A stretch of 64,000 bases of DNA from an uncultured Pseudomonadota bacterium (lineage in GTDB: Bacteria; Pseudomonadota; Alphaproteobacteria; Rhizobiales; Beijerinckiaceae): assembly GCA_963782195.1 (NCBI GenBank), contig CAWAIN010000005.1, positions 538,858 to 602,857 of the forward strand, given 5' to 3'. The notes below the pieces were generated by a model, which saw only the letters and a program-made list of their open reading frames with translations, ran no database searches and was not told the origin of the DNA. Both the position numbers and the translations under genes were made by a program. Below, in pieces: positions 41,069 through 44,992 of the stretch; position 1 is the stretch's first letter; every line of letters begins with the position of its first letter.

Positions 41069-41144
41069 GGGGTCATAGCTCAGTTGGGAGAGCGCTTCAA
41101 TGGCATTGAAGAGGTCGTCGGTTCGATTCCGTCTGGCTCCACCA
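41069..41144 (+). tRNA. tRNA-Ala(GGC)
   Basis: GGGGTCA acceptor, CTTCA/TGAAG anticodon stem with loop ATGGCAT, GGTTCGATTCC T-arm, encoded CCA. Confidence 0.97.
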
Positions 41145-41194
41145 ATTAAATCAAAGACTTATCTGAAAAATCGGCAGAACCTTCCCGCTAGCTG

Positions 41195-44100
41195 TTAATT
41201 AGCTACCCCCATCAGTGGATCGTCATCCTCAAAGGCGGCCTCACTCGCGAAATTATGAAGCGCAGGCCGATGGATCGGATCGGCGCCGATCGTGCCAACG
41301 AGCGCTGTCAGATATTCCGGCGTGCTGATCCGCTCCAGCTCGGCGCGTGCATAGTCCAGCCGGGCGTCGATTCCGAGCCGCTTTGCCTCCTCACGGTGGC
41401 CGGCGCGTGTCAGAAACTCCCTCAGGCTCCGGGTATGGCGGGCCCAGAGCGCCACGTCCCGCTGCTGCTTCGTCGCGAGGCGCTCGCGATACCAATCGCT
41501 CGCGAGCAGCGCCTCGCGAGTGAAGAGCGTCCGTATCTCGGGATCGCTCGCGGTCTTCCCCTCATAGCTTCCCCGCGCCATGATGTGGAGCAGCGCCTTG
41601 AGCGGTGGGCAGGCATCATCGATCGTGCCGTCTGTGAAGTATCCCTCAGCGACGCGCTGCTGCGCCTCCACGATGTTGTTGACGCCATCGGCGAATACCG
41701 CGGGATCCTGAAGTTCGGGTTTGAGGATGTCGTCCGTGAATACGACGGTAGGATTGTCGAAGACGCGTCCGAAGTAGGTGTGCACGAACTTGGCCGTGAT
41801 GCGGTAGCCCAGCCGGCTGGCCAACACCTGCCTTCCGCCGAAGCTATAGTCTTCGAGTTTCTCCAGATGCCCCGCCTCTATCAGTCGTCTTGGGTCCCGC
41901 TCATGCGGAAACAGCCTGCACCAGATCTCCGGAATCAGCAGGCTGATGTCGTGGTCCACACGAAGGTGCGGGCCGATAAAGCCGGCGGCTGAGCTGAAGC
42001 CCCCGTACCCGGTGAGCAGCATCGAGACGAGCGCGTTGTTGAGATCGGCTGTGGTCTGGATAGCGTTGAACGGCCCTTTGGTGAGCGCGCCCTCCGATCC
42101 TGCGCCCGTGGTGCTGGGCGACGTGCCTGTCACCGAGCACACGTAGTCCATGAACAGCTCCGGCAGCTCCTGGTAGTGGATGGGCCCGTAGACGCAGAGC
42201 GGGCGGATGCCTTCCTCCGGCCGGTTGTTCCGCCGGCCCGACAACACGCTGATCACCGGAAACACCACCGATGCTTCGAGCGGAAGGCGGCGATTTAGCC
42301 GCGCGCCCATCTCCGCAATGTAACGGTCACGCGGCCGGGCCATATCGGGCCGGACCTGTAGGTAGCGCGGATTCTTGGTGCGCTTGCCGTCAACGAGCCT
42401 CGGCTCTGCCGAGCAGATCGAATAACCGTCATCGGCGCGCGCCGCGTTCCGAGCCACATGTTCGCGCATCGGGCGCGTGAAACTGTCCTGCACCGCAACG
42501 TCCTCGACGATGCTCTGGCTGTCCGCGTGCGTGAGCGGCTGAAAGTTGGAGGAGAAGAGCCCCGGGCTCGCCATGTCTTCTTCAGTCTGCCTGTCGAGCC
42601 CCGGATGAATGGCATCGTCGGGCCGCTGGAAAAGCCTGAATTCGCAGTTCTGCGCCAACTTGAGGCTCGGGTGCCCTTCATATTCGGCCGGCAGTCCGTC
42701 CAGGTTCTGCGCGGGGACCACGACCGAGGCAGTGATGTCGTCCTCCATCTGCACTTTGTCGGCAGCGACGAAATCCTGTCTCAGTTTGTAGGTCCGCCAG
42801 GCACCGTCCTCCTGGCGACCGATCCGGAGGTAGTTGGCGACGAGCCGCCGTCCCTCGTACTTGAGTTCGTGCCCCGGGGCGCCGTTGATGATGTCCACGC
42901 TGAAATGTTGACGCCAATCCTTGCCCCACTCGGGGCTGTAGAAGCGCTTGATCACGAACACCAGCGCTCGCACGTGGTTCGGAATGCTTTCCAGCCAGGC
43001 GTTGTACTTGGGTGTGAACTCCGCGTTGGGTGTCAGGAGCTTGATCACCGAGCCGAGCGAACGTTCGAGCGACAGGATCGACCGCGAGGGGCCGCCGCTG
43101 TTGCCATCACGCAGATCTGGCAGTCGCGCGTCGGCGTAATCGCGGTCGAAGATTTCTTCGACCAGCGCCATGTCCTCCTCGAAATTGCGCACATGGAACG
43201 ACCCCGGCAGCACCGCATCCACCAGGCTTTTGCTGATCTCCGACTTGCCGCCGCCGGAGACCGTGCAGGGTTTGTGGCAAAAAGTGCCCTCGGGCACCGT
43301 GCCGATCAATCGCCAGCTCGGCGCCCCGCCATACTTGGCCATCCGGACTTTGTAGCCGCTCGGATGAATGTAAATCTGGCCAGGCAGCAGCTTTAGGTGC
43401 TGCGTCTCGCCATGCAGGGTCCACGTAATGTCCTGGCGATGGATGTCTATCTCCATATCCTCGGGCATGTAGTGGATTTCGGAGTAAATCCCGTCGGTGG
43501 CATAGCCCGATGGGTGGAGCTTCGCGCGTTCCCCGAGGAGCGCGAGCACCTCCTTGAATTTGTGCTGCCTGGCGCCATCGAGCCGCATGAGATCTGGGGC
43601 GAAGCGGTCGCCAAGACTAAAGGTCGCGAACGCCAACGCGCCGCCAGCGTGCTCCTCTTCAGCCCCGCCGAACAGATTCGCGCTGTAGCCAATCTGAGTC
43701 TTCACTTCCTTCTTGCAATAGCCGAAGTAATTGTCAGCGAGGATGGTGACCATCACACCATCCATGTCACGCGAGGTGATCTTGAACGGGCGACCCTCGT
43801 TGTAGATCTCGTTTTCGTCGGTCCAGCACATGCCTGCGGCACGCTGAGCCTGCGTGGCCTCGCTCGCGTGCGGGAGGCCAACGTCCTTCTTCTTCAGCCG
43901 CGTAAGATGCGGCGCCAAAATCACGCAGCCGCTGTGGCCCGTCCAGCCGTCCACATCGATCGCAGCGTCATTGGCCGGGAGATAGGGATCGCCGGCATTG
44001 CCGAAAATGCTCTCCACAAAGTCGAGGTTCGAGACCAGGCCGCCGGGGACGAAGTAGCGGATCTCGTTGCGCTTCTCCGGCGAGATCCCCGGCACCGCCG

Positions 44101-44731
44101 GACAGACGAGCGGCCGCAGCAACAGCGAGACCATGGTCTCGACCGGCTCTGGCCAATTCGCAGTAAACGGCAGGCGCAAAAGTTCGGGCGGCGGTCGGAG
44201 CGCCTCCTCAAGCAGGCGCACATAAGTGATGAGCGGCACGCGGGTTTTATCCGCGGGAATTGGAAGCCCGCCCTCAGCTACGTGAAAGACCCCCTGCGTG
44301 GTGCGGCGGTCGTTGACCGGGTTGTGCAAAACTCCATTATCAAGTCGATAGCTTGAGACGAGTTCGTTGTGCCAGGCATCGGCGTTGACCGGAAGCGACA
44401 GCTCCCGAGCGAGCCCATATTGGTCGAGAATGAAGGTCTCCGCAGGCAGGCGTACATACGCTGTGGTTGCGACATCCGCGAGCAGCTTGTCGATGTAGCG
44501 CTGAATTCTCGCGTCGGCGGGGCAAAGATGTTGAGAGAGCAGCCGGGTCTGCTCACGATAGCGCGCGAAGAGGTCGCCCGCCATGTGAAGCAATTCCTGG
44601 TCGCCGTTATCCTCGGGAATCCGGACGCCCATCGCCGCAAGCTTGAGCAGGATCGACCTGATGGCAGCGGATCGCTGCGGCGGAAGGACAGACCCATCCG
44701 CCTTGAGTCCTACTGCGCGTTCGAGCTCCAT
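41195..44731 (-). CDS. Pyrophosphate-dependent phosphoenolpyruvate carboxykinase (PEP carboxytransphosphorylase, EC 4.1.1.38)
   Basis: 1178 aa; NGVLHNP..DRRTT.GVFH, NLDFVESIFGNAGDPYLP.ND, WTGHSGCVILAPHL, ADNYFGYCKKEVKTQ, CHKPCTVSGGGKSEISKSL, SPSTTGAGSEGALTKGPFNA match my recollection of the Propionibacterium/Entamoeba PPi-PEPCK family; GGAGGGAG RBS. Confidence 0.9.
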   Translation of the reverse strand: MELERAVGLKADGSVLPPQRSAAIRSILLKLAAMGVRIPEDNGDQELLHMAGDLFARYREQTRLLSQHLCPADARIQRYIDKLLADVATTAYVRLPAETFILDQYGLARELSLPVNADAWHNELVSSYRLDNGVLHNPVNDRRTTQGVFHVAEGGLPIPADKTRVPLITYVRLLEEALRPPPELLRLPFTANWPEPVETMVSLLLRPLVCPAVPGISPEKRNEIRYFVPGGLVSNLDFVESIFGNAGDPYLPANDAAIDVDGWTGHSGCVILAPHLTRLKKKDVGLPHASEATQAQRAAGMCWTDENEIYNEGRPFKITSRDMDGVMVTILADNYFGYCKKEVKTQIGYSANLFGGAEEEHAGGALAFATFSLGDRFAPDLMRLDGARQHKFKEVLALLGERAKLHPSGYATDGIYSEIHYMPEDMEIDIHRQDITWTLHGETQHLKLLPGQIYIHPSGYKVRMAKYGGAPSWRLIGTVPEGTFCHKPCTVSGGGKSEISKSLVDAVLPGSFHVRNFEEDMALVEEIFDRDYADARLPDLRDGNSGGPSRSILSLERSLGSVIKLLTPNAEFTPKYNAWLESIPNHVRALVFVIKRFYSPEWGKDWRQHFSVDIINGAPGHELKYEGRRLVANYLRIGRQEDGAWRTYKLRQDFVAADKVQMEDDITASVVVPAQNLDGLPAEYEGHPSLKLAQNCEFRLFQRPDDAIHPGLDRQTEEDMASPGLFSSNFQPLTHADSQSIVEDVAVQDSFTRPMREHVARNAARADDGYSICSAEPRLVDGKRTKNPRYLQVRPDMARPRDRYIAEMGARLNRRLPLEASVVFPVISVLSGRRNNRPEEGIRPLCVYGPIHYQELPELFMDYVCSVTGTSPSTTGAGSEGALTKGPFNAIQTTADLNNALVSMLLTGYGGFSSAAGFIGPHLRVDHDISLLIPEIWCRLFPHERDPRRLIEAGHLEKLEDYSFGGRQVLASRLGYRITAKFVHTYFGRVFDNPTVVFTDDILKPELQDPAVFADGVNNIVEAQQRVAEGYFTDGTIDDACPPLKALLHIMARGSYEGKTASDPEIRTLFTREALLASDWYRERLATKQQRDVALWARHTRSLREFLTRAGHREEAKRLGIDARLDYARAELERISTPEYLTALVGTIGADPIHRPALHNFASEAAFEDDDPLMGVAN

Positions 44732-44935
44732 TGCTCCCTCCCATGCCCGGCTCCATTCGGAGTCCGTTAGCAGCGTCTTCCCCCATGAAGCGCCAGCCTA
44801 TTGGGTTTTCTTGATCGAAACCCTGGAATTCCGGAGAATGGCCTTCGGCACGAATACTAGGCGATAATCTTCCTTGCGGGAAAGGCCAGTGCTTGAGGAC
44901 ATGCCAAAGGGTGCGTGCCGCGCTGGCTGAAGCTT

Positions 44936-44992
44936 TTCAATAGCATTGAAGAGATCGTCGATTCGATTCCGTCTGGGGCCCAATTAAATCAA
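44936..44992 (+). repeat. Degenerate att-like copy of the tRNA-Ala(GGC) 3' half
   Basis: 44936-44976 equals 41096-41136 at 38 of 41 nt (three G>A changes), then CAATTAAATCAA identical to 41143-41154; anticodon, T-loop and acceptor are broken, so it is non-functional. Confidence 0.85.

Follow-up and report, generated by a model that had tools for sequence, protein, structure and literature searches.

How does a gene of central carbon metabolism come to stand alone between a tRNA gene and a decayed fragment of that same tRNA? The question is raised by a 64-kb stretch of DNA (the window, within which coordinates are given unless a contig is named) from a Methylovirgula genome of the Beijerinckiaceae (G000; 3.12 Mb, 6 contigs, ~48 tRNAs), in which a gene for pyrophosphate (PPi)-dependent phosphoenolpyruvate carboxykinase (PPi-PEPCK) is the sole long open reading frame (ORF) between an intact tRNA-Ala(GGC) and a partial second copy of it. 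Our preferred answer, held with moderate confidence, is that this islet is an integrase-less remnant, comparable to a cis-mobilizable element (CIME), of an element that a tyrosine recombinase inserted into tRNA-Ala(GGC), the strands crossing over at its anticodon loop. The features of the islet are these:

41069-41144, + strand: intact tRNA-Ala(GGC), called by ARAGORN, the putative integration target, its 3' half and trailer forming attL
41091-41154, + strand: left repeat copy, covering the tRNA between its anticodon arm and CCA together with a 10-nt trailer, ATTAAATCAA
41145-41165, + strand: trailer motif ATTAAATCAAAGACTTATCTG, found after tRNA-Ala(GGC) in nine species
41188-41207: dyad GCTAGCTGTTAATTAGCTAC (TAGCT-N6-TAGCTA), with the PEPCK stop codon (41195-41197) inside it
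41195-44731, - strand: intact gene for PPi-dependent PEPCK, 1178 aa
44732-44921, - strand: upstream region that travels with PEPCK in other genomes, presumed promoter or regulatory region
44931-44992, + strand: attR, the decayed 3' part of a tRNA-Ala (anticodon arm onwards) with its trailer, showing 3 G>A changes and an altered acceptor end that lacks 3 bases

A direct-repeat search of the window paired 41091-41136 with 44931-44976, 3.84 kb apart and 41/46 identical. Within this pair lies the 41-mer TTCAATGGCATTGAAGAGGTCGTCGGTTCGATTCCGTCTGG (41096-41136), whose second copy at 44936-44976 agrees at 38/41 positions, all 3 mismatches being G>A; 100 dinucleotide shuffles, used as the significance control, gave no such second match. 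A previous sequence-only reading of this DNA had described the same duplication from the anticodon arm onwards, with the same identity, and had seen the dyad TTCAA-N5-TTGAA preserved in the copy. The dyad is indeed intact there, though the anticodon has changed from GGC to AGC. Each copy is followed by CAATTAAATCAA (41143-41154 and 44981-44992), as that reading had also noted; the leading 2 bases are the tRNA's own terminal CA, and the sharing past the tRNA end comes to 10 nt, not the 12 nt it had counted. Between the T-arm and CAATTAAATCAA, the right copy has GGGGCC where the tRNA has the acceptor-stem sequence GGCTCCACC. The interval adjoins the 3' end of a tRNA and is closed by a direct repeat of that tRNA's 3' part, the arrangement of a tRNA-integrated island. 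Crossover by a tyrosine integrase in the anticodon loop of a tRNA yields breakpoints at the anticodon arm, and Williams is said to have described, in Nucleic Acids Research in 2002, a class of sites at which tyrosine integrases insert into the anticodon loop of tRNA genes. The Ala locus resembles this class in that its block of identity starts at the anticodon stem and continues through the 3' end and past it, with a symmetric stem flanking a presumed 7-nt overlap; it differs in that the class is assigned from the scar alone, no cognate integrase having been found.

Comparison with relatives, most of them metagenome-assembled genomes, showed what the site looks like without an insertion. In three species drawn from both major clades of the genus (G011, G003 and G015), only ~80 nt separate tRNA-Ala(GGC) from a bioB-like gene, and the distance to the next tRNA, tRNA-Ala(CGC), is 2.9 kb at these empty sites vs 11.1 kb in G000. 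The empty site that the sequence-only reading expected is present, and it defines an insertion of 8.5 kb (41145-49685), more than the islet. The stand-alone 3.8-kb element of that reading has to be given up, since the PEPCK islet makes up only the 3.8 kb nearest the tRNA in a composite whose remaining parts and right-hand flank are as follows:

44993-49685: distal, older module of the composite insertion
45081-46061, + strand: aspartyl-protease-like gene, the only distal-module gene common to the locus of the closest genome (G006)
46079-47047, - strand: alpha/beta hydrolase
47106-48320, - strand: MFS transporter
48407-49309, + strand: LysR regulator
49379-49594, - strand: small ORF
49686-50693, - strand: bioB-like radical-SAM gene, the ancestral right flank
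52221-52296, + strand: tRNA-Ala(CGC), a conserved landmark

Part of the distal module, at 45.5-47.2 kb, shows GC dips to 0.53-0.58. Insertions at tRNA-Ala(GGC) elsewhere measure 3.45 kb (G006) and 5.4 kb (G005). As for recombinases, the islet had been called integrase-less, and this holds: there is no PF00589 gene beside the tRNA or anywhere in 41145-49685, and one has to go 41 kb, to the start of the window, to reach the nearest, a conserved gene of the Xer type.

Is the Ala repeat an isolated oddity of this genome? We searched every G000 tRNA with 20 nt of its trailer against the whole genome by BLAST and found five other partial copies, of tRNA-Ser(GCT), tRNA-Val(CAC) (two), tRNA-Lys(TTT) and tRNA-Gly(TCC), all of which run from the anticodon stem or loop to CCA. 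The tRNA-Ser(GCT) copy, a perfect repeat from the anticodon stem (86/86 nt), lies 43 kb distant, and the pair encloses a classical island (contig C5:246586-289558) whose integrase (PF00589, 340 aa) is encoded ~1 kb from the tRNA; this island looks like a recent, possibly active, integrative element or prophage. The two tRNA-Val(CAC) copies, 1.6 and 3.0 kb from their tRNA, end two tandem single-gene units without an integrase (contig C2:1030325-1033463; L159, 1826-4964), which encode an outer-membrane-protein beta-barrel (298 aa) and a Na/glutamate symporter (400 aa) and are closed by partial tRNAs of 45 nt at 98% and 52 nt at 94% identity. The tRNA-Lys(TTT) copy is 6.9 kb away, across MFS, NMT1-type and deacetylase genes, and the tRNA-Gly(TCC) copy (37/37 nt) is 8.7 kb away, across P450-like, GntP-like and patatin genes; neither interval holds an integrase. 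Several non-Xer integrases are encoded in the genome, one of them at contig C5:247641-248663. Because the breakpoint at the anticodon arm is shared, random local duplication is a poor explanation, and by analogy these partial copies point to att scars of tyrosine integrases. The attL/attR pattern of anticodon-loop crossover, which had been proposed for the Ala locus, gains from five copies with the same start, one of them bounding a 43-kb island with an integrase. The Ala pair is the most diverged of the tRNA pairs and probably the oldest.

We turn to the cargo. The 1178-aa protein matched 8e1u_A and 6k31_A over query residues 19-1152 (phmmer, E=0; 1215 and 1210 bits), without a match to any Pfam or NCBIfam model, and is a predicted PPi-dependent PEPCK (EC 4.1.1.38). 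It resembles the characterised PPi-PEPCKs, or PEP carboxytransphosphorylases, of Propionibacterium (8e1u) and Actinomyces (6k31) in full-length similarity, in length (~1150-1180 aa) and in patchy occurrence across distant lineages (review PMC8100219); it differs in a replaced C-terminal tail of 7 residues, and its activity is a prediction. Upstream, a spacer of 199 nt (44732-44930) reaches the right repeat, so that the interval holds, as had been claimed, one ORF and ~200 nt upstream of it. Within this spacer, the element GAATT..GAGAATGGCCTTCG.CACGAAT.CT.AGCGATAGTCT (44780-44870) is conserved in nearly all Methylovirgula PEPCKs, at whatever locus, and may act as a promoter or regulator site accompanying the gene as it moves. 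Similarity to the sequences upstream of the PEPCKs of two other species (G013 and G043) extends to ~44921, ~10 nt short of attR. The other end of the gene is less tidy. Homology to the C-terminal tails of G017 and G041 stops at ..FEDDD, and ~10 native terminal codons have been replaced by the locally derived PLMGVAN*, the last 7 codons. This places the left junction of the PEPCK block at ~41208-41218, ~65-75 nt past the tRNA end and within the 3' end of the gene, where it reads as an illegitimate join that cuts the gene and not as a defined element end. A junction that clips the coding end fits a deletion halted by selection on the gene.

Where the gene came from was addressed by a first survey of 25 genomes of the genus and 16 other families of the order, in which PEPCK was present in 14/25 and 0/16, respectively. 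In a maximum-likelihood tree of the proteins, the Methylovirgula PEPCKs form one clade (support 100/100) nested in Gemmatimonadales (98/95), with Polyangiaceae further out; a single nested clade indicates one inter-phylum acquisition. Within the genus, the history of the gene departs from that of the species, as represented by a tree of one protein (RpsA) in which some nodes have modest support. The PEPCK block of G044 is 94-95% identical in nucleotides to those of G011, G043, G013, G046 and G021, whereas the rpsA locus, which is highly conserved, is only 83-84% identical between G044 and G011, G043 and G013. PEPCK and RpsA divergence are weakly correlated (r=0.32); at the protein level PEPCK evolves ~2.5-3x faster than RpsA in close species pairs, and the ratio falls below 1 in distant ones. 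In G008, a member of a PEPCK-poor clade, PEPCK is sister to that of G046 (98/96). Homology between genomes covers the gene, up to ~90 nt past its 3' end (~230 nt in G019) and up to ~200 nt upstream, a block of ~3.6 kb whose 3' boundary falls at the identical base in G044, G011, G046 and G020. The locus differs in nearly every species; a conserved ancestral locus was considered and rejected, the flanks being unrelated or scattered except in the pairs G017/G041 and G013/G043. Within the genus, PEPCK moves from species to species in a unit the size of one gene and does not track the species. Acquisition by transfer, as the sequence-only reading held, is well borne out by the nesting in Gemmatimonadales, the varying loci and the weak correlation with RpsA. 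The G000 protein itself is 8.5-11% diverged from all others; it is not a recent import and comes from a pool circulating within the genus.

A contig labelled Gemmatimonadales (L039, DATNIM010000032.1, 3880 nt) carries a PEPCK 91% identical to the G000 protein, vs 78-82% for other Gemmatimonadales; either a Methylovirgula contig has been mis-binned here, or the value signals a very recent inter-phylum exchange.

Several of these loci lie beside tRNAs. PEPCK directly follows tRNA-Arg(ACG) in G013 and G043 and tRNA-Arg(CCG) in G008, where the block reaches CCA; in G010, 1.3 kb separate it from tRNA-Gln(TTG). In every tRNA-adjacent case the 3' end of the gene faces the 3' end of the tRNA. None of 23 PEPCK loci of Gemmatimonadales or Polyangiaceae has an adjacent tRNA within flanks of ±10 kb. 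With ~48 tRNAs in 3.1 Mb, finding 3-4 of ~13 distinct loci beside a tRNA end is, by an informal estimate, far above chance. The search for PEPCK next to tRNA-Ala and an integrase in other genomes, which the sequence-only reading had suggested, brought up the three other tRNAs; in the genomes of the genus examined, no integrase-bearing element turned up at tRNA-Ala(GGC). A 12-nt match to the 3' end of tRNA-Arg in G013 was treated as chance, as it is not kept in the sister genome G043. The G010 locus has features of its own: a tRNA-Ala-like 30-mer 8.1 kb downstream comprises the D and anticodon arms only, and PEPCK lies in three reading-frame pieces (G010:C1:1131515-1135164; L013, L015, L017), representing a pseudogene or assembly frameshifts. 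In the 14 genomes searched for integrases (PF00589), the only trace near PEPCK was a 35-residue fragment 3.3 kb from the gene in G011 (C1:2858983-2859087).

The closest genome, G006 (RpsA 98% identical, flanks at 87-96% nucleotide identity), has an identical tRNA-Ala(GGC) and lacks PEPCK throughout. Its slot, from the tRNA to the shared protease gene, measures 1.3 kb and contains a single gene for a secreted YkuD-like protein, oriented like the G000 PEPCK; it is closed by a shorter and more decayed copy of the tRNA 3' part, ending CAATTAAATCAAcCAGATAG, with the same trailer variant as the right repeat of G000. No residual homology was found between the two slot interiors. The ~75 nt after the intact tRNA are only ~60% alike in the two genomes, while the 138 nt before it are 96% alike, which suggests that the element end beside the tRNA is not the same in both today, though the two ends are related. 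The YkuD-like protein has a homologue in G000 (60-71% aa identity) encoded 216 nt from tRNA-Gly(CCC). At tRNA-Val(CAC), too, the content of the slot in G006 is entirely different, and both G000 genes are absent from it. From these differences we take it that slot contents turn over faster than these two species diverge.

The trailer behind the tRNA bears on the same matter. The motif ATTAAATCAAAGACTTATCTG is absent in the three empty-site species and in four more, at least one of which (G043) is not empty; it is probably the end of an integrated element, and its absence from the three empty sites makes it less likely that the ATTAAATCAA trailer belongs natively to the tRNA. Further along, ~45-65 nt past tRNA-Ala(GGC), G000, G006 and G017 share, at the same distance from the tRNA, a dyad made up of paired TAGCTA-like palindromes with 5-6 nt between them, and the DNA beyond it is unrelated among the three (G006, L032 ~7560-7580; G017, L118 ~285-305). 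The motif in the form CCA-(A/T)TnAAATCAAnGAcTTAg also follows tRNA-Phe, tRNA-Lys(CTT), tRNA-Val(GAC) and tRNA-Asp(GTC) in G000, as well as tRNA-Arg(ACG) in G011 (L125, 7769-7795), where it is 24/27 identical to the tRNA-Ala trailer of G006, and could represent a terminus conserved across one family of elements that integrate at tRNAs. Two metagenome scans were made for an empty site with the attR trailer: one gave no match, and the other gave 31, none of them Methylovirgula-like and the single match adjacent to a tRNA end coming from another organism. On metagenome contig Ga0265303_10444138 (L180, 930-975), the tRNA end of an unrelated organism is followed by TCAATTAAATCAATCAGATAGG, an exact match to 20 nt of the attR trailer; this contig also carries a toxin-antitoxin-like gene pair.

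How the islet arose may be pictured as follows. Integration would have rebuilt the tRNA from the element's own 3' half and its ATTAAATCAA trailer, giving attL, and would have displaced the host's original 3' half 3.8 kb downstream, where, as attR, it later decayed. The PEPCK element would have landed atop an older insertion, the module from the aspartyl-protease gene to LysR, to give an accreted island of 8.5 kb with its newest layer at the tRNA. Recombination and transfer genes would subsequently have been deleted, with selection sparing just the PPi-PEPCK gene and the promoter region in front of it, while the ~10 last codons fell to one end of a deletion. The cargo would have entered the genus once, from a Gemmatimonadales-like donor, and then passed from species to species, repeatedly landing beside tRNA 3' ends. 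What the data show is the repeat with its geometry, the empty site, the composite build, the lack of an integrase, the horizontal transfer of the gene and its clipped 3' end; we infer that an integrase acted, that the layers were added in this order and that the scar was left by the same element that brought PEPCK. Mismatches within the presumed overlap make it probable that the islet no longer moves; the sequence-only reading had likewise taken the decayed right repeat as a sign of fixation.

A number of observations weigh against this account. No integrase, excisionase or fragment of either was found in 41145-49685, the mechanism being argued by analogy, and among the genomes of the genus that we examined, none carries an element with an integrase at tRNA-Ala(GGC). 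Searches with 32-nt T-arm/acceptor patterns (≤3 mismatches) found no far-side partial tRNA at the PEPCKs of G013, G043 or G008. The composition signal is weak: the PEPCK region has a GC content of 61.7% vs 60.2% for the genome, a tetranucleotide distance at the 96th percentile and a codon-usage distance at the 73rd (ORFs ≥400 aa) or 92nd (ORFs ≥800 aa) percentile. The compositional contrast that the sequence-only reading had looked to is slight; nearly host-like values agree with a gene drawn from the pool that circulates within the genus. The G000 PEPCK also groups with those of G020, G017 and G041 (100/98), the same subclade as in the RpsA tree, which is compatible with long residence in the lineage. 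Finally, the right repeats of G000 and G006 differ by ~25% and the adjoining intergenic DNA is 81% identical; such near-neutral divergence dates the scar to roughly the time when the two species separated, and, as the G006 slot holds a YkuD-like gene without PEPCK, the element that made the scar need not have carried PEPCK. Site-specific delivery of the gene, as claimed earlier, retains the att geometry, the empty site and the horizontal transfer in its favour, with the reservation that the scar may predate the present cargo.

That reservation leads to the main rival, a different history in which scar and gene are separate: the att pair would belong to the common ancestor of G000 and G006, and PEPCK would have come later by homologous or illegitimate recombination and replaced the previous cargo, the homologous route using the tRNA on the left, attR and the protease gene on the right, and DNA from another strain. 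We consider this possible but doubtful. It accounts for a sister genome that has the same right repeat, trailer variant (CAATTAAATCAAyCAGATAG) and protease gene but another single gene, for right repeats that have diverged about as neutral DNA does, for a PEPCK junction that lies off the att core, inside the 3' end of the gene, and for the swapped content of the tRNA-Val(CAC) slot. It sits less well with the 75 nt beside attL, whose ~60% likeness next to 96% upstream suggests different incoming ends and not one inherited scar, with the PEPCKs at the 3' ends of three other tRNAs of the genus, as expected for tRNA-targeting carriers, or with a PEPCK block that comes within ~10 nt of attR. A partial tRNA that arose by local duplication, or as a pseudo-tRNA, with PEPCK as an ordinary chromosomal gene between the copies, would agree with the nearly host-like composition and the lack of a mobility gene; we judge it very improbable, however, as all six partial copies start at the anticodon arm, one pair bounds an integrase island, three relatives have an empty site, and the gene is clearly horizontally transferred and absent from G006. 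The shared breakpoints and the empty sites contradict the local duplication that the sequence-only reading had named as the finding that would overturn it.

The remaining alternative is a minimal cassette of gene, promoter and att, moved in trans, now or recently, by an integrase encoded elsewhere. We regard it as unlikely, even though the fit is tight, with only ~10-44 nt per side unaccounted for, and comparable single-gene units exist in the tandem pair at tRNA-Val(CAC), and in the YkuD-like gene of G006, whose G000 homologue lies near tRNA-Gly(CCC). The tRNA-Gly(TCC) islet, with its 37/37 repeats and no integrase, in a genome with several non-Xer integrases, would also suit a cassette, as would the ~3.6-kb PEPCK block that ends at the same base in four genomes. 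Against it stand the 3 mismatches of the repeat, including one at the expected point of strand exchange, the anticodon loop, together with an indel; the lack of a second att copy at the other tRNA-adjacent PEPCK loci; the different att specificities that different tRNAs would demand; and the metagenome scans, which yielded no empty site. The clipped coding sequence at the left junction also counts against it: missing codons favour a larger island trimmed by deletion, in the manner of a CIME, over a cassette mobilised in trans. Of the two options that the sequence-only reading had left side by side, the reduced island gains and the precise minimal element loses. Rather improbable, in our view, is the wider notion of a tRNA cassette exchange, in which promoter-bearing single genes with tRNA halves and a ATTAAATCAA-type trailer would be moved in trans, also between tRNA loci, the candidates being the PPi-PEPCK, YkuD-like, outer-membrane protein and glutamate symporter genes. 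If true, it would be a tRNA-based functional analogue of the integron that spreads core-metabolic genes.

Read as a remnant of an element integrated in tRNA-Ala(GGC), the islet clearly exemplifies a type of element already known and does not establish a new one. Like a CIME, it has the 3' end of its target and a direct repeat, keeps attL and attR (as imperfect copies, with 3 substitutions and an indel) without integration or transfer genes, lies in tandem with decayed material and has retained its cargo. CIMEs were, however, defined in Streptococcus, where cis-mobilisation by an incoming integrative and conjugative element is experimental, whereas the G000 islet is known from its sequence alone and has mismatched att copies, one gene and one illegitimate junction. 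The accretion of CIMEs and integrative and mobilizable elements in tandem resembles the layered locus (PMC5704250). The island model of the Prochlorococcus tycheposons (bioRxiv 10.1101/2020.12.28.424599) is similar in tRNA integration, in partial tRNAs between layers, in placing the newest and most variable layer next to the tRNA and in integrase-less degenerate elements that leave metabolic cargo; the likeness is confined to this pattern of growth, as the islet consists of one gene, with neither integrase nor replication module, in a soil/peat alphaproteobacterium. The tandem ssrA islands of Dehalococcoides, which carry reductive-dehalogenase operons (PMC3146451), also bring an energy or catabolic function by site-specific integration into a hypervariable region with repeats of the target 3' end, but with a serine-recombinase module and a 20-bp ssrA repeat, where the islet has a ~60-nt anticodon-loop tRNA repeat and no recombinase. 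Integron cassettes serve only as an analogy, since the ends of the islet are tRNA-derived repeats and the nearby PF00589 gene is only of the Xer type.

The window holds a further gene of related function. An ATP-type pckA (56053-57700, - strand) lies just upstream of malate synthase G (53895-56222). Its ORF from 57237 spans only positions 120-464 of the Pfam model PEPCK_ATP, and upstream of it the N-terminal part stays in frame but has no start codon, the likely initiator Met falling in a different frame. The pattern resembles a frameshift ~24 codons in, either a real pseudogene or an assembly error; if pckA is truly broken, PPi-PEPCK may be the organism's only working PEPCK.

PPi-PEPCK ties the phosphoenolpyruvate-oxaloacetate node to pyrophosphate, and the locus offers a clean, datable case of such a central-carbon enzyme as mobile cargo: from a Gemmatimonadota-like donor to an acidophilic methylotroph genus, followed by spread as a single gene and repeated settlement at tRNAs. 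It illustrates that tRNA hotspots can pare an island down to one selected gene, and the integrase-less islets bounded by tRNA halves across this genome form a data set for asking whether such remnants can still be mobilised. The mobility of the gene helps account for the patchy distribution of PPi-PEPCK remarked on in reviews (PMC8100219).

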